Origin: Actinomycetota bacterium
Lineage (GTDB): Bacteria; Actinomycetota; Coriobacteriia; Anaerosomatales; PHET01
Length of the DNA: 64,000 nucleotides
Assembly: GCA_037445775.1 (NCBI GenBank)
Contig: JBBIJX010000003.1
Location: 3,315 to 67,314, forward strand
Reading direction: 5' to 3'
Part shown: positions 6,053 through 35,723 of the stretch, one piece after another
Position numbering within the stretch: the stretch's first letter is position 1
Layout: each line of letters starts with the position of its first letter
Position numbers and translations under genes: made by a program
The notes under the pieces: generated by a model
What the model was told of the DNA's origin: nothing
The model's input: the letters and a program-made list of their open reading frames with translations, nothing else
The model's database searches: none

Positions 6053-8682
6053 GCACGGTCCTTCCGGGCGGGGACGAGCCCGGCCTTGACGGCGAGACGA
6101 CGAAGGTTGGCGAGTTCGGCCTCGCGGCCGGCGACTCGCCCGTCCAAGCGGTCGTCGCGGGCTCGCGCAAGTATAGCCGAGAACGCCGCTCCGGGCGGGG
6201 CGCCCATCTCGATGAGGTCGCGCCCCGTGACGCTCGGCCGCACCGCCGCCACCTCGAGGGCGTAGTGCTCGACGCGTTCCCGCGCAAGGTCATCTCCCCG
6301 CGCCCAAAGGACTGCGACCGCTTCCGGCGCGAAGCCTTCGAGCATCCGCGCAAGCCTGCTGTCACGCATCCCGCGCTTGTCTGCGAGCGCGCGCTCGACG
6401 CCTGCCGCCGAGGCGATCGACAAGGCCACCTGCGCGTACGCCTTGCCGATACGCATGTGTCTGAGCCAGCGATCCACGCCGTCGCGCCGGCCTGACGTCG
6501 AAAGCGCGGCGATGAGCGCCGTGCGGCGGTCTGGCAAACGAAGCACCGACTCCTCCAGCCGCGCAACGCCAGCGAGCGCGGACTCGGCCGCCGCTATCGC
6601 GCTCGCGCTCGACCCGCCCGGCGGCAGCATCGGAGCAAGCGCACCGAGCTCGTCAACGCGCTTGAGCACCCGCACAGGCTCCGCCTCGTCGAGCAGGTCG
6701 TAGAGCTCCTCGCGCACGCGCGCGCCGGAGACCTCGTCGAGCAGGTCGAGTTCGACGGCCTGACGCGCCAGCGCCTCGCTGTGCTCGTCGAGCGCGAAGC
6801 CGTAGCGGACCTCGAAGCGCGCTGCGCGCAAGACACGTGTCGGATCTTCGACGAACGACAGCGCGTGCAGCACGCGAATCGTGCCGTCCTTGAGATCACC
6901 GAGTCCGCCGAACGGGTCTGCGATGGCGCCGAAGCATGATGCGTCTACGCAGGCCGCCATCGCGTTGATGGTGAAGTCGCGCCGCAGCAGGTCCTGCCGA
7001 AGCGTCGAGCGCTCGACGGTGGGAAGCGCCCCGGGGCGCGTGTAATACTCCGAGCGGCTGCTCGCGATGTCGATGCGGAAATCACGCGACAGCACGAGCA
7101 CCGCGGTGCCGAACCTGCGGTGAGCCGTCACGCGAGCCCCCAGCGTCGCGGCCGCCCGTTCGCCGAATGCGATGCCGTCGCCCTCGACCACCACGTCGAT
7201 GTCGAGGTTCTCGCGGCCGAGCAGCATGTCGCGCACGAACCCGCCTACAACGTGGGCTCGCACACCGCATTCCTCAGCGATCTGGCCCAGTCGGCGCAGG
7301 GTGTCGCGGACTTGAGGCGGCAGCAGCGTGTCGACCGATGCAAGAAACGCGCGACGCGCCTCCTCGTCGGAACGCTGCGGCGCACCGCCAACGTAGCTCT
7401 CGCCGTGCTGCGCGCGCAGGACATCCTTGCGCGTGATGATGCCGATCATGTGGCCGTTGTCCATGACAGGCACGCGGCCGATCCCCCGCGTACCCAGCAG
7501 CCTCTCGAGCTCGGTCAGGTCCGTGCCGCGCGCGACAGTGACCACGTCGCCGCCCATGAACCCCTTGACCGGCGCATGTCCGAGCCGGTGTCTGAGCGCC
7601 TTGTCGACGTCCTTGCGCGTGACGAGGCCCACCAGCTTGCCGGCCTCCTCCACCGGCAGTCCCCCGTGTCCCCACTTGCCCATGAGCTCCGCGGCATCGC
7701 GCATCGAGGTCTCAGGGGTCACGGTGCGCACCGGCGCACTCATGATGTCGGCGGCGGTCAGCGGTGGGTGCACTACTTGCTCCAAGGCGGTGCGCACCGC
7801 TCTGAGCGCCTCGGCGGGCGGAAGCTCCCGGAAGCCCGCGGAGGCCGCTTGGGCGTGCCCGCCGCCTCCGATGAGCGCCATCGCCGCACCCACATCGACT
7901 TCCGCCAGGCGCGACCGCGCGACGATCTGCGTCCGGTCGGGCATGCTCACCACTGCGATAGCGACCCGGTGCCCCAGATCCTCGACTACGTGGTGCGTGA
8001 GCACGCTCGCCGAGTCGACATACTCGTCGGCCAGTGCTGTGCCCACGGCGACCGGCTGCCCGTGAACGTCCCATACCTCGAGTGAACTCTCGAGCTGTTC
8101 GAGCAGCCGCTGTTGCTCAGGCTCGAGAGCGCGCGCGAGGAACTGGTTGAGCACCTCCAAGTCCGCCCCTGTCGCCATGAGCCAGGCGGCGGCGTCCGCG
8201 TCATAGGCGGTCGCCGTCGGGTAGGTGAGCGATCCGGTGTCTTCATGAATGCCCAGCAGGAAGAGGGATGCCTCGAGAGGCGTCGGCACGATGCCGCGCG
8301 CGCGCAGCTCATGGACGAGGATGCTCGTTGTCGCGCCCACGTCGGCGCTGCGGTCTTCCACGCCGGACACGTCGCCCTCTTGGGGCGGGTGGTGGTCGTA
8401 GACGATGACCTCGACGTCGGCGCGAGCTACGAGCGACCCGATCTCGCCGATCCGGCCCGCATCCCGTGTGTCGACCATGATCACGGAATCAACCTCGGAC
8501 AGATCAAGGCCGCGCAGGTCGACAAAGGGCACGAAGTCCTCGTGCAGGTTGTGGAACGCGCGCACGTTCGCGTTCTGCGTTCCTAGGAAGACACCCTTGG
8601 CGCCCTCGAAGAGCCTCGTCGCGGCGACAGTGGCCGCGTAGGCGTCGAAGTCAGGGTTTGCATGTCCAACGACGATCCGCAC
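6049..8682 (-). CDS. Multidomain DHH/DHHA1 phosphoesterase - CBS pair - class II tRNA nucleotidyltransferase (CCA-adding/poly(A) polymerase family)
   Basis: N-terminus has DFDAYAA...VYDHH (DHH) and GGGGHAQAA (DHHA1). Two CBS modules sit in the middle. C-terminus has VVGGFVRDMLLGRENLDIDVVVEGD and RRDFTINAMA, the nucleotidyltransferase head. Confidence 0.8.
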   Translation of the reverse strand: MRIVVGHANPDFDAYAATVAATRLFEGAKGVFLGTQNANVRAFHNLHEDFVPFVDLRGLDLSEVDSVIMVDTRDAGRIGEIGSLVARADVEVIVYDHHPPQEGDVSGVEDRSADVGATTSILVHELRARGIVPTPLEASLFLLGIHEDTGSLTYPTATAYDADAAAWLMATGADLEVLNQFLARALEPEQQRLLEQLESSLEVWDVHGQPVAVGTALADEYVDSASVLTHHVVEDLGHRVAIAVVSMPDRTQIVARSRLAEVDVGAAMALIGGGGHAQAASAGFRELPPAEALRAVRTALEQVVHPPLTAADIMSAPVRTVTPETSMRDAAELMGKWGHGGLPVEEAGKLVGLVTRKDVDKALRHRLGHAPVKGFMGGDVVTVARGTDLTELERLLGTRGIGRVPVMDNGHMIGIITRKDVLRAQHGESYVGGAPQRSDEEARRAFLASVDTLLPPQVRDTLRRLGQIAEECGVRAHVVGGFVRDMLLGRENLDIDVVVEGDGIAFGERAAATLGARVTAHRRFGTAVLVLSRDFRIDIASSRSEYYTRPGALPTVERSTLRQDLLRRDFTINAMAACVDASCFGAIADPFGGLGDLKDGTIRVLHALSFVEDPTRVLRAARFEVRYGFALDEHSEALARQAVELDLLDEVSGARVREELYDLLDEAEPVRVLKRVDELGALAPMLPPGGSSASAIAAAESALAGVARLEESVLRLPDRRTALIAALSTSGRRDGVDRWLRHMRIGKAYAQVALSIASAAGVERALADKRGMRDSRLARMLEGFAPEAVAVLWARGDDLARERVEHYALEVAAVRPSVTGRDLIEMGAPPGAAFSAILARARDDRLDGRVAGREAELANLRRLAVKAGLVPARKDRA

Positions 8683-8700
8683 CGGACTTCGTCTCCCAAC

Positions 8701-10011
8701 TCACAGCTCGTAGAAGAGCGGCGACGCGGGTTGCGGGTCAGCGGCGAAGCGGATCGAGGCGCGGAACCGCACCTCGGCCTCGTCCAGGCGCGCCCTCGTG
8801 GCCGCGTGCACCGTCGCGAGCAGCCCGCCCGCATCCACCCGGTCACCTGTGCGGACCGCAAGCACGACTCCCGCCCCCGGGTCGATCACGTCGTCGAGCG
8901 TCTCGCGCCCCGCCCCCGCGAGCATCGCGGCGCGTCCAACGCCCGCCGCATCGAAGCCCGCGATGAAGCCGCTCTTCTCAGCACGAACCTCCCGTGTCAT
9001 CGCCGCGCGCGGAAGCAGCGCCGGGTCGTCGATGACGGCCGGGTCGCCTCCTTGGGCCGCCACCCACGCACGCATCTTCGCGAGCGCGGCGCCGGACGCG
9101 ATGACGCCGTCGACGAGCTCACGCCCGTGCTCCTGGTCGCGTGCCGCTCCAGCCATTGCAAGCATCCGTGCCGAAGAGGTCCGCGCGACCTCGATAAGCG
9201 CCGGTGAGCCACCCTCCCCACAGAGCACGCGCACCGCCTCGGCGACCTCAAGGGCGTTGCCGACGCAACTGCCGAGCGGTTCGTTCATGTCGGTCAGCTC
9301 ACAGACGACATCGCGCCCCAAGGCGTGGCCGACGCGGGTGAGTTCACTCGCGAGGGCTCGCGCGTCTGCGATCGTGCGCATGAACGCGCCGGAGCCCACC
9401 TTGACGTCTAGGAGGATCGCACTTGCGCCACCCGCCACCTTCTTGCTGATGATCGAGCCCACGATGAGGGGGATGCTCGCCACCGTCGCGGTGACGTCGC
9501 GCAGCGCATAGAGCTTCTTGTCCGCCGGATCGATGTCGGGCGTCTGCGCGATGACGGCCAGCCCGACGTCGCGCACCTGCGCCACGAACTCCTCGGTGCT
9601 CAGCTCGACACGGAAGCCCGGTATCGCCTCAAGTTTGTCGAGCGTGCCGCCCGTATGACCGAGCCCCCGCCCGCTCATCTTGGCCACGGGCACACCGCAC
9701 GCGGCGACTATGGGCGCGATGACGAGAGTCGCCGTGTCCGCGACGCCGCCGGTGGAGTGCTTGTCCACCGTGATGCCCGGAATAGACGAAAGGTCCACGA
9801 CACGCCCCGAGCGCACCATCGCGTCAGTCAGCCACACCGTCTCATCGGCGTCGAGCCCGTTGAGGTACGCGGCCATGAGCCACGCGGCCATCTGGTAGTC
9901 GGGGATCTCGTTGCGCGCGAAACCCAGCACGAGCGCATCGATCTCTTCGGCCGTGTGCGAGCGGCCGTCGCGCTTGTGCGCGATGAGCTCCTCGACAGTG
10001 AGCGCGCTCAT
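8701..10011 (-). CDS. pdp: Pyrimidine-nucleoside (thymidine) phosphorylase
   Basis: EEIDALVLGF...IPDYQMAAWLMA...DKHSTGGVADT motifs. Start at ATG 10011 (MSALTVEEL), in an ATGA overlap with the deoB stop. Confidence 0.9.
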   Translation of the reverse strand: MSALTVEELIAHKRDGRSHTAEEIDALVLGFARNEIPDYQMAAWLMAAYLNGLDADETVWLTDAMVRSGRVVDLSSIPGITVDKHSTGGVADTATLVIAPIVAACGVPVAKMSGRGLGHTGGTLDKLEAIPGFRVELSTEEFVAQVRDVGLAVIAQTPDIDPADKKLYALRDVTATVASIPLIVGSIISKKVAGGASAILLDVKVGSGAFMRTIADARALASELTRVGHALGRDVVCELTDMNEPLGSCVGNALEVAEAVRVLCGEGGSPALIEVARTSSARMLAMAGAARDQEHGRELVDGVIASGAALAKMRAWVAAQGGDPAVIDDPALLPRAAMTREVRAEKSGFIAGFDAAGVGRAAMLAGAGRETLDDVIDPGAGVVLAVRTGDRVDAGGLLATVHAATRARLDEAEVRFRASIRFAADPQPASPLFYEL

Positions 10012-11207
10012 GTCCGGCGGACCTCGGAGAGGAAGCTCGTGCCCCGTCCGCACGCGCCGGCGAGCCCGTAGAAGTCGAGCACCGTCTCGCCGATATCTGC
10101 GAAGGTGGAGCGTTCCCCTAGGTCGACGCCGGTATCGACGCCCTTGACGTGCACGATGAGGGGCGTGTACTCGCGGCTGTGGTCCGTCGACGAGGTCGTG
10201 GGGTCACAGCCGTGGTCGGCGGTGATGATGAGCAGGTCGCCATCGCGCATGGCCTCGACAAGCTCGGGCATCCGCGCGTCGACGGCCTCTAGCCCGCGCG
10301 CATAGCCCTCGACGTCGTTGCGGTGTCCCCAGATCATGTCGAAGTCGACGAGGTTCGCGAAGACGAACCCGTTGTCCGCCGTGTCGCGCACCCGGGCGAG
10401 CAGGTTGTCGAAGCCGTGCATGTTGTTCTCCGAGTGCGGCGATTCGCAGATGCCGCGCCACGCGAAGATCTCGCCGATCTTGCCGATGCCGTAGCATCTG
10501 ACGCCCGCGTCACTCAGGCGATCGAGCGCCGTGGGCTCGAACGGCTCGATGGCGAAGTCGCGGCGCCGGTGCGTACGCTGGTAGACACCAGCGGCGTCAG
10601 GGCCGATGAAGGGGCGCGCGATGATCCTGCCCACAGCGTGCTCTCCAACGCACACCTTCGTGCGCGCGATCTCGCAAAGGCGGTAGAGCTCGTCGATAGA
10701 CACGACGTCTTCGTGCGTGGCGATCTGGAATACGCTGTCCGCGCTCGTGTAGACGATGGGTGCGCCGCTGCGTACGTGTTCGCCGCCCAGCTCCTGGATG
10801 ATGACCGTGCCGCTCGCCGGGCGGTTCCCGAGCCAGCCTAGCCCGGTCTCGCGCCTCCACGCCTCCATGACCTCAGGCGGAAAGCCCTCAGGGTAGGTGG
10901 GGAACGGACGGGACAGCTCGAGCCCCATCATCTCCCAGTGCCCCGTCGTAGTGTCCTTACCGGCACTAGCCTCGGCGTTGCGGCCCCACGACGCGACGGG
11001 GGAAGCGACCGGGGGCACACCATCGATGGGCGTCACGTTGCCGAGTCCCATCGCGCCGAGGTTGGGCATCTTGAGACCGCCCGCGGCGCGCGCGGTGTTG
11101 CCAAGCGTGTTCGCCCCCTCATCGCCGTAGAGCGCAGCATCGGGCAGCGCGCCCACGCCCACGCTGTCGAGCACGAGAACGATCGCCCGGGACTCGCGTC
11201 CGTGCAT
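10008..11207 (-). CDS. deoB: Phosphopentomutase
   Basis: IVLVLDSVGVGALPDA...GANTLGN and ITADHGCDPT motifs. Start at ATG 11207. The track N-terminal extension to 11525 is Arg-rich junk overlapping pilB. Confidence 0.9.
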   Translation of the reverse strand: MHGRESRAIVLVLDSVGVGALPDAALYGDEGANTLGNTARAAGGLKMPNLGAMGLGNVTPIDGVPPVASPVASWGRNAEASAGKDTTTGHWEMMGLELSRPFPTYPEGFPPEVMEAWRRETGLGWLGNRPASGTVIIQELGGEHVRSGAPIVYTSADSVFQIATHEDVVSIDELYRLCEIARTKVCVGEHAVGRIIARPFIGPDAAGVYQRTHRRRDFAIEPFEPTALDRLSDAGVRCYGIGKIGEIFAWRGICESPHSENNMHGFDNLLARVRDTADNGFVFANLVDFDMIWGHRNDVEGYARGLEAVDARMPELVEAMRDGDLLIITADHGCDPTTSSTDHSREYTPLIVHVKGVDTGVDLGERSTFADIGETVLDFYGLAGACGRGTSFLSEVRRT

Positions 11208-30404: not shown

Positions 30405-31559
30405 CTATCGCTCCTTCAGATACGCCATCACTCCCTCTGCTATACCCGTTGCGACCTTGTCCTGATAGTGCGGACTAGCGAGAAGCCGATCCTCCACAGG
30501 ATTCGACAAGAATCCGCATTCAACGAGGATGGCGGGGACCTTCGACCAGTTGAAGCCGGTCAGATCGCCTCGCGCCTTCGCGCCCCGATCGAGAGCGCCG
30601 GTCGAGCGCACCACCGAGCGCTGGACTTGGGATGCCGCACGCTTTGAAGGCGCGTGCGTCTTCTCCGTCCACCGGTTCTTCGCCGGATAGAGCGTCGAGA
30701 TCCCAGCAACGGTCTCGTCGGGGTTACCGTCACCGTGGATTCGCACGAAGAGATCGGCACCTGCCTTGGTGGCGATTCGGGCCCGCTCGCGGTTGCTGAG
30801 ACGCACGTCGTTCGTCGTGCGCGTCATGACCACCTTGACCCCCCGTGACTCGAGAAGGGCCTTGAGGTTCATCGAGATCTGCAGCGCGATCTCGTACTCG
30901 GGAATGGTGGTCTTGACCCCTGTCGTACCACTGGTGACGCTGGGCTTGGTCTTCTTCGACCCAGGACCCAGCGGTTCGGGTGTCGCATCTCCACGCTGCT
31001 GATGCCCGGGGTCGATGCAAACTACCCATCCGCCGCCTTGCCGCTTCTCAGGACTGCGCTTCGCGCTTGCCTTCTTCGGCTCCAGAGTGACGGCTACAGA
31101 GGCTTCGGGTCCGACGAGTGTCCCGGCCGCGGGCTCCTGCGACGAGATGCGGAGCGACCCATCAGGCTCTGTGGACGCACCCGCAGCGCGCTGCGCCATG
31201 AGGGAGAGACGCACCGCGTCGAGCACGACTCTTGCACTGTCCAGCGACATGCCCACGACATCGGGCACCTCCACCGTCAAGGACGCGTGCTCGCGAACGT
31301 CCACGAGTGTGTCCGTCACGGCCCTCGTGGAGTCAGTTGCACCGGCGGTGACGCCGTACAGCGCACCGCCTGCGCCCTCACTGGCTGGCGCTGAAGCGGC
31401 GACAACCGCGGTGACGGGCACAGATGACGCGGGGTCGGTGCCTGAGCCGGATGCCGCCGGTGAGTCTCCGGGAGAGCGCAGCGCGCCCACGGCGACAGCA
31501 ACAGACACGAGTAGCGCAGCCACGGCGACCGACACGACCCAAGGACTCGCCCACGACAT
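30405..31559 (-). CDS. Membrane-anchored N-acetylmuramoyl-L-alanine amidase (Amidase_3) with a PASTA-like domain
   Basis: Start at ATG 31559 with an N-terminal TM helix. VEVPDVVGMSLDSARVVLDAVRLSL...SSQEPAAGTLVGPEASVAVTLE is PASTA-like. CIDPGH...DLFVRIHGDG...ILVECGFLSN is Amidase_3. The track start at 31652 overlaps tRNA-Met. Confidence 0.85.
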   Translation of the reverse strand: MSWASPWVVSVAVAALLVSVAVAVGALRSPGDSPAASGSGTDPASSVPVTAVVAASAPASEGAGGALYGVTAGATDSTRAVTDTLVDVREHASLTVEVPDVVGMSLDSARVVLDAVRLSLMAQRAAGASTEPDGSLRISSQEPAAGTLVGPEASVAVTLEPKKASAKRSPEKRQGGGWVVCIDPGHQQRGDATPEPLGPGSKKTKPSVTSGTTGVKTTIPEYEIALQISMNLKALLESRGVKVVMTRTTNDVRLSNRERARIATKAGADLFVRIHGDGNPDETVAGISTLYPAKNRWTEKTHAPSKRAASQVQRSVVRSTGALDRGAKARGDLTGFNWSKVPAILVECGFLSNPVEDRLLASPHYQDKVATGIAEGVMAYLKER

Positions 31560-31622
31560 TCCGGGGGCGCGGCGGGCACCGGCAGCGCGATTGTGTGTGT
31601 CTCGTTGCACGATGGTCCTTCC

Positions 31623-31697
31623 TGGTGGGCCCGGCAGGATTCGAACCTGCAACCAAGGGATTATGAGTCCCCTGCTCCACCATTGAGCTACGGGCCC
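31623..31697 (-). tRNA. tRNA-Met (anticodon CAT; elongator-type, could be tRNA-Ile2 if lysidinylated), CCA encoded
   Basis: Hand-folded cloverleaf: acceptor GGGCCCG/CGGGCCC with a paired 1:72, anticodon loop CTCATAA, T-loop TTCGAAT. Confidence 0.88.
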
Positions 31698-31892: not shown

Positions 31893-31968
<76 letters not shown>

Positions 31969-32029: not shown

Positions 32030-33844
32030 TTACTCCAGATAGTCACGCAGCCTGCTGGACCGGCTCGGATGCCGCAGCTTGCACAGCGTCTTCGATTCTA
32101 TCTGGCGGATGCGCTCACGCGTCACGCCGAACTCGCGACCGACCTCCTCGAGCGTGCGTGGATGGCCATCGACGAGACCGAACCTGAGCTCGATCACCTT
32201 GCGCTCGCGCTCAGACAGACCGTCGAGCACCCTCCCTAGCTGTTCCTGCAGCATCGAGAAGCTCGCCGCATCCGGCGGAACGACCGCCTCTCCGTCCTCG
32301 ATGAAGTCACCGAGCTGGCTGTCCTCTTCCTCGCCGATAGGCGTCTCCAGGCTGACCGGTTCCTGGCTGATCTTCAGGATCTCGCGCACGCGATGCGCCG
32401 CTCGCTCGATCTCGCCATCCATCTCACGAATGCACGCCTCGGGGCGCGCACGGAACCAGCCCTCGCTCTCCTCAGACACGTAGATATCCGGCTCGGCGCC
32501 CTGAGCGCGCTGCCTGAGCGCGGCGATGGTGTCTTCAGCCTTCGGCTCGCGCTCGAGCTCCTTCACGAGCTTCTTGTTGACTGCGACGCGCACCTTGACG
32601 AGCCGGTCGAGCTCCCGCGTGATCGCAGCGATGTCGTCAGTCACCCCGTCGACCGGGTCCGGAGTCAATGAGTGCCTGATCCAGTAGACGGCCCGCATAT
32701 CCTCGGAGACGAGCTCCATCTTGACCGCGATCTCCTCAGGGAACGGCTCGCGGCCGAGCTCCTGCAGCAACTGACGCTGGATGCGGATGAGCTTGTTGAT
32801 GGTCTCGACCATGTGCACCGGAATGCGGATCGTCCGGGCCTGATCCGCGATGGCACGCGTGATCGCCTGACGGATCCACCAGGTGGCGTACGTCGAGAAC
32901 TTGAAACCCTTCACGTAGTCGAACTTCTCGACCGCACGTATCAGACCGAGGTTGCCTTCCTGGATGAGGTCGAGGAAGAGCATGCCACGGCCTACGTAGC
33001 GCTTCGCGATGGACACGACGAGTCTCAGATTCGCCTCAACCAGCTGTTGCTTGGCGTCTATGCCAACCTGCTCGATGCGGCGAAGCCGTCGCTGCTCGGC
33101 GCGATCGAGTTCATAGCCCTTGTCCGCGGCGTCCTCAAGACGAGCCGCGGCCTCAAGGCCCGCCTCGATCTTCATTGCGTAGTCCACCTCTTGGGCCGCC
33201 GTGAGGAGCGGCACCTTGCCGATCTCCTTCAAGTACATCCTGACCGGGTCGCCGGTGAGAGGTGCGACGGCCGCCGCATCTGACGCGCGCTTCTTGGGCT
33301 TCTTCTTGCCCTTGGGAGCGACAGGTTTCGGCAGCTCGGCCTCGGCCGCCACCACATCCGCGATCTCGCTGTCTTCCTCATCCAAATCGTCGCGCGTGCT
33401 GGGCACGTCGGTCTCGACCTCCGCCACGACGTCAGCGACCGCGTCAGGGTCCAGCACGTGTGAGGGGTCCTCAACGATCTCGATACCGCTCACCTTGAAC
33501 TGGGCGTAGATCCTGTCGAACTGCTCATCCTCGAGTCCCGCGTCCACAAGTGCCTGTTGGACGTCGTCGTCGGTGATGCTGCCGTGGTCGGCGCCCTTCC
33601 TGAAGATCGCCTGCACCTGCGGCAGCAAGAACTCCGGATCAGACGGAAGCGCGGGCGTCACCGCACCCGTGCGCTCAGCCGGTGCAGCCTTCTTCGGCGC
33701 AGGAGTGCGCGCGGCCTTCACTGGCGCCGCCTTCACTGGCGCCGCCTTCACCTGCGCCGTCTTCGGCGGTGCGGATTTGGCGGCTTTGTCCGCCTCTGGC
33801 GAACTCTTCTTCCTGGATGCGCCCGATCTTGGGTTCGTTGCCAC
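32030..33844 (-). CDS. rpoD: Primary RNA polymerase sigma factor (sigma-70/SigA family) with Lys/Ala/Pro-rich N-terminus and an insertion in region 3
   Basis: Regions 1.2 ([11 protein letters not shown]), 2 ([41 protein letters not shown]), 3 ([14 protein letters not shown]) and 4 ([30 protein letters not shown]). Sits directly downstream of dnaG. Confidence 0.92.
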
Positions 33845-33872: not shown

Positions 33873-35723
33873 CTAGCGGAGCGGACTGCGCCGCACAGCG
33901 TCGAGTTCGCGCTGCAGCTCCGCTACATCCTTCAGTATCTCGTCAGATAACGTTCTGTCCTTGACTGCTGCCGGCGATTTCAGCCGCGCCCTCCCGACGG
34001 CTATTCGCCGCTCGATGTCGAACTCCTTGAGCCTCATCACGCAGCCACTTACGAGTTCGCCCGCTACTTCTTCCCCTTGTGCGGTCAATGTCGCACCAGA
34101 CAGCACGCGACCGGCGCCGGGGACCTTCTCCTCCATCCTGCCCACAAGAGTCGCGGCGCGCTCGCCTGCAGGTGCGCCGGCGATCACCTCGACCATTGCC
34201 CGGTAGGAAGGGTCGGACAAGACGGTCTCAGCAAGCAACTCCTGTGCCCGGGGGCGCAGCGCGGGCCACTCAAGCAGTAGCGCGATGAGGTCTCTCGCGG
34301 TCTTGAGCTCGATGCTCATCGGATCGACAAGACCGCCGCCTGCCGCGGATGCCCCGGCAGCGTCACCCGACGGAACGGCGAGGTCGTCTGCCCGTTCGGG
34401 GCCCGGCGGCCGTGCCTTCGCGCGCGAAATCGCGTGCTTCACCGTCGCGTAGTCGGCAAACAGGCGGTCGGCGATGTGGTTCGCGTAGTCGTCCGCGAGC
34501 AACGACTCCTTGATGGGAGCCAGTACCGCGGCCGCGTCAGCGAGCGCTCGCGCACGTTCCTCCGGGCGCTCGAGGTCCCAGCGCGCGAGACGGCGGTCTA
34601 TCGCGAACTCAAGGAGCGGCTGTGCGCTGTGTACGACGTCTTGGATGGCGGCCGGCCCGCGCGTCGCGACCGCGTCTGCGGGATCGGCACCTTCGGGGAG
34701 CACGGCCACGAGAAGCTCGACGCGGGCGCTCCCGGCCTCGGGGGTCACGGACCGGTCGACGAACTCGACCGCCCTTTCCGCCGCGCGCATACCCGCCTCA
34801 TCGCCGTCGAACACGTAGACGATCCGTCGCGCGAAGCGGCCGAGCAGCCTCACATGCTGCTGGGTGAGTGCGGTGCCGAGCGTAGCCACCACATTGTTGA
34901 TCCCCGCCTCGTGCAGCGCGATGACGTCGGTGTAGCCCTCGACCACGAGCGCCGTCCCGCTCGCCGTGATGGGGCCTTTCGCGCGGTCGATGGCGTAGAG
35001 GTTCGCGGACTTGCGGAAAACCGGAGTGTCGTTGGTGTTGAGGTACTTCGGTTCGCCGGAACCCACCACGCGTCCGCCGAAGCCGACCACGCGGCCTTGG
35101 ACGTCGCGGATGGGGAACATGATGCGTTCGTAGAACCGGTCCTTCATCTGCCCGGAGTCGCTCCGGAGCGCGACGTTGGCGCCCACCATCTCGTCGTGCG
35201 TGAACCCCGCCTTCGTAAGATGGGCGCAGAGCGCGCCTCGCCCCGGCGCGTATCCGAGGTCCCAGGAGTTCGCGACCGCCGTGCCGAAGCCACGCCCGGC
35301 GAGGTAGTCCCGCGCGCGACCGGCTCCCGCGTCACGTGAGCCGGTCAACGTGCGATGGAAGAATGCGGCGCTCTCAGCTAGGGCAGCGTACAGCCGTTCC
35401 TTGGTGCCTCGCGGCACGCCTCCCTCACTCTCATGCAGTTCGATGTGCGCACGATCGGCGAGCAGCCGAACCGCATCGGGGAAGTCGAGGCTCTCGGAGC
35501 GCATCAGGAAGCCGAACGCGTCGCCGCCCGCACCGCATCCGAAGCAGTGCCAGAGCTGCGTCGCGGGGTCGATCTTGAAGCTCGGCGTCTTCTCTCCGTG
35601 GAACGGGCAGTTCCCCCAGAATAGACGCCCCTTCTGCCGCAGAACGACGCGCTCGGAGACTAGGGCCACGAGGTCAGTGGCGTCGCGTACGCGCGCGATG
35701 TCCTCATCCGTTATTCGACCCAC
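33873..35723 (-). CDS. dnaG: DNA primase
   Basis: [15 protein letters not shown]...[11 protein letters not shown] zinc ribbon and the TOPRIM region [16 protein letters not shown] start preceded by GGGAGGAGG. Confidence 0.92.

Follow-up and report, generated by a model that had tools for sequence, protein, structure and literature searches.

A lineage-specific insertion in domain 3 of the primary sigma factor of uncultured Coriobacteriia-like bacteria, with a probable origin in duplication of adjacent sigma helices

In the bacterial transcription machinery, few parts vary as little in length as domain 3 of sigma factors (sigma-3). This domain recognises the extended −10 element, borders on the β flap and continues into the sigma finger. 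The non-conserved region (NCR) of sigma-70, which lies between regions 1.2 and 2.1, is lineage-specific, fast-evolving, acidic and largely helical, and is absent from many bacteria. Lineage-specific insertions of the RNA polymerase (RNAP) β and β′ subunits (β SI1/SI2 and β′ SI3) occupy fixed sites and form separately folded peripheral domains (PMC4496699). Here we describe a rare exception to the constant length of sigma-3. A 64,000-nucleotide stretch from an Actinomycetota bacterium (contig JBBIJX010000003.1; the whole stretch is referred to as the window) encodes a primary sigma factor, RpoD/SigA, with 106 extra residues between the second and third helices of this domain.

Like the sigma-70 NCR, this insert is lineage-specific, fast-evolving, acidic and, as predicted, largely helical, and it occupies a surface site of a conserved primary sigma factor. 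It does not belong to the NCR, whose site is in sigma-2, between regions 1.2 and 2.1; the insert instead separates helices 2 and 3 of sigma-3. It also differs from the NCR in being a recognisable duplicate of adjacent sigma helices, and in being restricted to a few uncultured Coriobacteriia-like lineages. Its fixed site in a conserved RNAP subunit, marking lineages, recalls the β and β′ insertions, with separate folding a prediction only in its case; those insertions are in the catalytic subunits and have other folds, whereas this one is in sigma. Measured against canonical three-helix sigma-3 (PDB 1KU2 and the sigma chains of open complexes), the protein has near-invariant helices 1–3 and region 3.2, and differs in the five additional helices predicted for the module. 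In full-text literature searches we found no report of an insertion within region 3 of sigma. What is new here is a lineage-specific insertion in an RNAP subunit at a site that we have not found described, with a duplication origin that can be traced.

The gene, a primary (group 1) rpoD/sigA, occupies 32030..33844 on the minus strand and encodes 604 amino acids (aa) when its open reading frame (ORF) is counted from the first GTG. Pfam models Sigma70_r1_1, r1_2, r2, r3 and r4 all matched the product above their cut-offs, and the TIGR02393 model (RpoD_Cterm), whose cut-off is 354, scored 373.8 bits over two stretches with the insert between them. Full-length RpoD equivalog models scored below their cut-offs, which is expected in view of the insert and a divergent N-terminus. 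The dnaG primase gene (33873..35723, minus strand; Pfam Zn_ribbon_DnaG, DNAG_N, Toprim and DnaB_bind) lies immediately upstream. A preliminary description of this DNA, made from the sequence alone, had called the protein a primary sigma factor, and the TIGR02393 score and the adjacent dnaG gene bear this out. For automated annotation, an insert of this kind splits Pfam and NCBIfam matches and pushes the scores of full-length RpoD equivalogs below their cut-offs.

The extra segment comprises 106 residues, aa 379–484, encoded by exactly 32393..32710. It splits the Sigma70_r3 match in two, the second stretch covering aa 484–526 and beginning at profile position 35 of 78; the insert site falls between profile positions ~34 and 35. 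This is the turn between sigma-3 helices 2 and 3, equivalent to M489/P490 of E. coli sigma-70. In an alignment with 16 relatives, 10 had a three-residue turn (TAE, SAE or TAD) after KMEM at this site, and the window protein and the other six relatives (P0002–P0006 and P0042) had 100–122 residues in its place. The split Sigma70_r3 match and this alignment confirm the preliminary description of an insertion of about 100 residues between helices 2 and 3. That description also had the segment replace the three-residue turn. The ~100 extra residues stand, but the last three (AAH, aa 482–484; 32393..32401, minus strand) are probably the original turn itself, to judge from the alignments: the other insert-bearing proteins have AAQ, SGQ, CGQ, MGQ or, in P0042, AAE at this position. 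The true insertion would then be ~103 aa directly after KMEL, with AAH corresponding to the TAE turn. Canonical sigma-3 helix 3 and region 3.2 follow (32255..32392, minus strand), and are invariant in relatives with and without the insert.

The spacing between the HMVETINK and LETPIG motifs was surveyed in every primary sigma gene on the loci retrieved for this analysis. The spacing was 44 residues in 179 and 45 in one of 180 other primary sigma genes. The only exceptions were the insert-bearing clade (141–163 residues) and an unrelated Firmicute metagenome-assembled genome (MAG), L001 (103 residues). Among the 120 closest homologues, seven carried the insert, all at the same site. The segment is thus not an ordinary conserved part of group 1 sigma factors; six other lineages share it at the same site with 100–122 aa, and a site in region 3 is as unusual as first supposed, both by this survey and by the literature searches. 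An identical insert was present on four separate NCBI contigs, from four assemblies of the species. Independent assemblies from NCBI, ENA, JGI and Logan also contained homologous inserts, with dnaG immediately upstream of the gene in each case, and a metagenome scan yielded two more (L164 and L190). GC content by codon position was equal in the insert and the rest of the gene, with GC3 = 0.84 in both. Domain 3 of this housekeeping sigma factor carries a true insertion, which is inherited and specific to certain lineages.

The insert was compared with its host protein by several methods. When a profile of the seven inserts was aligned by hhalign with a profile of 15 insert-less sigma factors, insert residues 7–65 aligned with regions 2.4 to 3.1a with a probability of 90% and an E-value of 1.6e-6. 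Smith–Waterman alignment with shuffling gave six of the seven inserts their best match on host residues 319/321–377/400 (core ~320–378), all in the same register, with z-scores of 2.3–6.8; the alignments of P0003 and P0006 were ungapped, and the other four, including that of the window protein, contained small gaps. A HMMER search of PDB sequences with the insert profile returned almost only primary sigma factors, with insert residues 7–60/66 on regions 2.4 to 3.1a (best E-value 0.003); the matches included residues 431–487 of E. coli sigma-70 and 347–402 of Mycobacterium tuberculosis SigA. In the reverse direction, the insert-less sigma profile weakly re-matched its own positions 313–364 inside the insert. 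At the DNA level, a 20-nt stretch over the ELEREP/ELGREP codons is 90% identical between the two units. Judged by these alignments, insert residues ~7–65 are a diverged tandem copy of the adjacent aa ~320–378.

The source unit, as placed by hhalign, pairwise alignments and HMMER against the PDB, is aa 314–378 (32711..32905, minus strand), consisting of the end of the region 2.4 helix, the linker, sigma-3 helix 1 (region 3.0) and helix 2. The copy is aa 379–443 (32516..32710, minus strand). Since it directly follows the source, an in-frame tandem duplication of ~65 codons is indicated. In the copy, the elements are predicted to come in the order helix, linker, long helix, EREP turn and short helix, matching 2.4 helix, linker, helix 1, GREP turn and helix 2 in the source: predicted helix 381–393 pairs with the 2.4 helix, 405–430 with helix 1 and 436–447 with helix 2. 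The stretch that had earlier been described as looking like coiled coil is accordingly not a new coiled coil but the diverged copy of the first helix of sigma-3.

The remainder of the insert forms a tail of ~38–40 residues (aa 444–481; 32402..32515, minus strand), predicted to contain helices at 458–466 and 468–484. The tail is the best-conserved part of the insert across the seven lineages, with the pattern Y..W[FY].A.P..A, in which Y, W/F, A, P and an E are invariant or nearly so. Two sources were considered for it. A second partial copy of region 2.4, suggested by the resemblance of WF.A.P, was not supported (z ≤ 1.3 against shuffles), and no signal was obtained for an origin in another reading frame or strand of the gene (z −0.9 to 2.1).

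The only other exception in the spacing survey also carries an in-frame tandem duplication in domain 3. This is L001 (4769..6244, plus strand, of CAYJDS010000002.1, a low-GC Firmicute MAG labelled ‘uncultured Staphylococcaceae’), which likewise encodes a dnaG-linked primary sigma factor (491 aa). Its units, HMVETINK...ETPINEE (59 aa) and LVDKVKK...ESPIGEE (60 aa), align with a score of 80 and a z-score of 11.7. It is an independent event in a host of another phylum: the duplicated unit runs from helix 1 through helix 3 to the beginning of region 3.2 and lacks both a 2.4 piece and a tail, and the copies are much less diverged than those of the window protein. Sigma-3 can thus accrete structure by in-frame tandem duplication of its own helices, here and in this unrelated Firmicute, and the insert offers a concrete example of how lineage-specific RNAP insertions arise.

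A full-length AlphaFold2 model of the window protein was built on a 120-sequence alignment, in which the insert part rests on seven sequences only. The predicted local confidence (pLDDT) was 86–98 over aa 351–490 including the insert, and 86–97 in the copy. Canonical sigma-3 helices 1 and 2 were placed at 343–363 and 369–375, followed by helices at 381–393, 405–430, 436–447, 458–466 and 468–494. When the module was modelled alone (aa 341–497, from the seven insert-bearing sequences), the same elements were obtained, with a mean pLDDT of 86.7 and a predicted TM-score (pTM) of 0.80. In the prediction the last insert helix runs unbroken into canonical helix 3 (468–494). This continuity and the high pTM suggest that sigma-3 and the insert would form one rigid body. 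The copy and the tail are thus predicted to be a five-helix module, rigid with sigma-3, that leaves canonical helices 1–3 and region 3.2 intact. A Foldseek search with the module matched only sigma factors in the PDB, and these weakly (E-value about 0.01, TM-score about 0.24), because, to our knowledge, no solved sigma factor carries anything at the insert site.

Elsewhere in the full-length model, pLDDT fell to 45–68 at aa 271–340 (regions 2.1–2.4), where the protein is most conserved. The low values probably reflect prediction of sigma-2 without core RNAP or templates, and they make the full-length model unfit for the relative geometry of sigma-2 and sigma-3.

All seven inserts are acidic, with a net charge of −5 to −9 and a pI of 4.8–5.2. 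The residues equivalent to the extended −10 readers (H344 and E347 in the window protein) align with A and R in the copy. Since these reader residues are lost and the net charge is negative, the copy most likely does not read DNA. Six lineages retain the YW.RH sequence of the copy, which derives from WWIRQ in the source; in P0042 the helix that carries it is missing.

Canonical sigma-3 helix 2, directly before the insert (aa 369–378; 32711..32740), reads AV.M[ED][LI] in all seven insert-bearing proteins and G[EDA].M[ED][MI] in all 112 insert-less relatives. Because these substitutions are perfectly linked to the insert, they suggest that helix 2 packs against it and forms part of the interface. 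The AV.M signature is diagnostic among close relatives only. As a DNA signature of insert-bearing genes, EEIAV.M was tried and rejected, as primary sigma factors of other phyla often have it; two of 103 sigma hits carried the insert.

Selection was estimated from pairwise comparisons in which synonymous sites are near saturation (dS > 1). Between P0003 and P0005, dN/dS was 0.12 in the insert and ~0.02 in the core; between the window gene and either of these two it was 0.32–0.45 in the insert and 0.02–0.07 in the core. On these values selection on the insert is purifying but relaxed relative to the core.

To follow the history of the insert, its distribution was compared with the relationships of its hosts. 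The P0042 insert aligned with the other six with z-scores of 3.3–9.2 (6.5–9.2 in five of the pairs), and this homology suggests that all seven have a single origin. In a neighbour-joining tree of the sigma core, and likewise in a DnaG tree, the insert-bearing lineages were not monophyletic. P0042 was sister to insert-less P0053 and P0055 (80% DnaG identity), and the window lineage grouped with insert-less P0011 and P0028. Divergence of the insert follows that of DnaG: DnaG identity was 72% between P0003 and P0005, the window and P0003 were 64% identical in DnaG and 40% in the insert, and the window and P0042 were 60% and 21% identical, respectively. An old insert followed by several losses would fit these relations. 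Replacement of a sigma-3 cassette by homologous recombination, in either direction, would more easily explain the linkage with helix 2. Synonymous-site identity around the P0042 insert was flat and showed no recombination tract, at sites that are near saturation.

Taking these results together, we consider the segment to be an inherited, duplication-derived insert that would act as an accessory surface domain; this is probably the best overall explanation. Our confidence is high in its structural and evolutionary part, and any specific functional role is put forward only tentatively. The insert began with an in-frame tandem duplication of ~65 codons, covering the end of the 2.4 helix, the linker and helices 1 and 2, with the copy placed directly after the original and followed by the tail of ~40 residues. 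Copy and tail would then fold as an acidic five-helix subdomain whose last helix is continuous with sigma-3 helix 3, serving as a surface accessory domain in a role comparable to that of the sigma-70 NCR. The preliminary description had it project near the extended −10 and β-flap side; from topology, it is plausibly attached on the side of sigma-3 that faces the spacer and extended −10 DNA, next to the β flap. From there it could modulate promoter-complex formation or escape; alternatively, it could offer a docking surface for lineage-specific factors. Sigma-3 and the β flap form a pocket that is used by the actinobacterial activator PafBC (PMC8635444), which makes either of these roles plausible. 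Should the module contact DNA, the flap or a partner, the primary sigma factor of this uncultured actinobacterial group would have a regulatory surface not seen before, and the insert-bearing lineages and their insert-less sisters would be a natural experiment on promoter usage. Insert-bearing MAGs include GCA_964403355.1, GCA_015665585.1 and GCA_947085035.1, and insert-less sisters include GCA_029265315.1 and GCA_034370385.1.

Several observations weigh against this explanation. The z-score of the insert–host alignment is modest for the window protein (3.4) and weak for P0006 (2.3), and the match is absent for P0042. The duplicated unit explains only ~65 of the ~103 insert residues, and for the tail, which gave no alignment above shuffles with either the host protein or the head of the insert (z ≤ 1.3), a source was not found. 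The AlphaFold models of the insert part depend on only seven sequences. The patchy distribution, as judged from the trees, is not explained by a single gain and vertical descent. Finally, the insert changes fast: mean pairwise identity among the seven is 40%, against 91–97% in the core, and its dN/dS between the window and P0042 is ~0.9, from a poor alignment with saturated sites. By these two measures, constraint appears weak at most insert positions.

These same features could be accounted for if the insert were a tolerated remnant without function, a harmless in-frame duplication in a surface turn that has been kept because precise removal is difficult. The fast divergence (40% mean identity, against more than 90% in the core), a dN/dS several-fold above that of the core, the existence of close relatives that do without the insert, and the unrelated Firmicute MAG that likewise tolerates a duplication in sigma-3 all agree with this. 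However, the frame has stayed open over 100–122 codons in seven lineages despite dS > 1, dN/dS is as low as 0.12 in the closest pair, and the inserts retain a conserved aromatic and proline core and a uniformly acidic charge. The confidently predicted fold and the linked substitutions in the adjoining helix 2 of sigma-3 also argue against a remnant. We therefore regard it as unlikely, while giving it more weight than the alternatives that follow.

A bolder version of the accessory-domain explanation gives the module a larger part. In such a ‘double sigma-3’, a second sigma-3-like bundle, made up of the insert and the N-terminal extension of helix 3, would be stacked on the canonical one. It would change how the holoenzyme engages the spacer, the extended −10 element or the β flap, and these lineages would as a result have a different core-promoter architecture or a dedicated partner protein. 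The linkage with three substitutions in helix 2 and the patchy distribution would then reflect the exchange of a co-adapted cassette by homologous recombination. We think this distinctly less probable than a functionless remnant.

It is more doubtful still that the duplicated 2.4 and 3.0 helices serve as a second DNA-reading element for an extra spacer feature upstream of the extended −10. The copy does stem from helices that read −12 and the extended −10, an aromatic pair and an R (YW.RH, compared with WWIRQ) are kept in six of the seven lineages, and the attachment point would be on the DNA-proximal half of sigma-3, according to the three-helix topology. But the extended −10 readers H and E have been replaced by A and R, the module is acidic (net charge −5 to −9), the helix with YW.RH is altogether absent from P0042, and one sigma-2 helix could presumably not rebuild a −10 pocket.

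That the insert is a foreign element inside rpoD (an intein, a mobile domain or a horizontally acquired module) might be supposed from its compact size and its sharp presence or absence among relatives. The preliminary description had already argued against an intein, and this held: the first residue of the segment is V (P in P0042), and R comes directly after the closing AAH, so that neither junction has Cys, Ser or Thr and there is no His-Asn, and no Hint or other domain was matched. There was no significant Pfam match to the insert with E-values up to 10. An exhaustive HMMER search with the insert profile gave 0 matches among 1.84 billion representative proteins, a set clustered at 50% in which insert-bearing sigma factors are represented by insert-less ones and hence undetectable, so that the result is informative on other families. 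Codon usage and GC content match the rest of the gene, and the insert is homologous to the adjacent sequence of its own host. A foreign origin is effectively refuted.

The sole argument for an artefact of assembly or gene calling (collapsed repeat, chimera or frameshift read-through) is that the source genomes are metagenome-assembled. This reading has next to no chance of being correct, given the same sequence on four separate NCBI contigs, homologous inserts from different projects and assemblers, an uninterrupted frame and invariant flanks.

The surroundings of rpoD are of housekeeping type. The gene order is glycyl-tRNA synthetase beta, pyruvate phosphate dikinase, HD phosphohydrolase, H+-pyrophosphatase, dnaG, rpoD, tRNA-Asn and tRNA-Met, PASTA-amidase and sugar epimerases, and the dnaG–rpoD order is common to all insert-bearing relatives examined. 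The 64-kb window contains no second ORF of the sigma-70 family. Among named relatives, Coriobacteriia MAGs and Anaerosoma tenue are the nearest. The start codon of rpoD is ambiguous, as database (NCBI) calls begin further in than the first GTG and give 568 or 543 aa in place of 604. In the longest version, the first ~60 residues (33700..33844) are rich in Lys, Ala and Pro and contain short repeats, with an AlphaFold pLDDT below 50.

Between rpoD and the gene with PASTA and Amidase_3 domains lie genes for tRNA-Asn (31893..31968, plus strand) and tRNA-Met (31623..31697, minus strand). The longest ORF for the PASTA and Amidase_3 protein (30405..31652, minus strand) is 415 aa with a TTG start and overlaps the tRNA-Met gene; the database call is 401 aa, and the true start is probably further downstream. 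In the locus of P0005 (L083, GCA_947085035.1), a phage-type integrase and an rve-family transposase (8106..10402) are found directly downstream of the insert-bearing rpoD, in place of the PASTA-amidase neighbour, which indicates that a mobile element has inserted beside the tRNA region.

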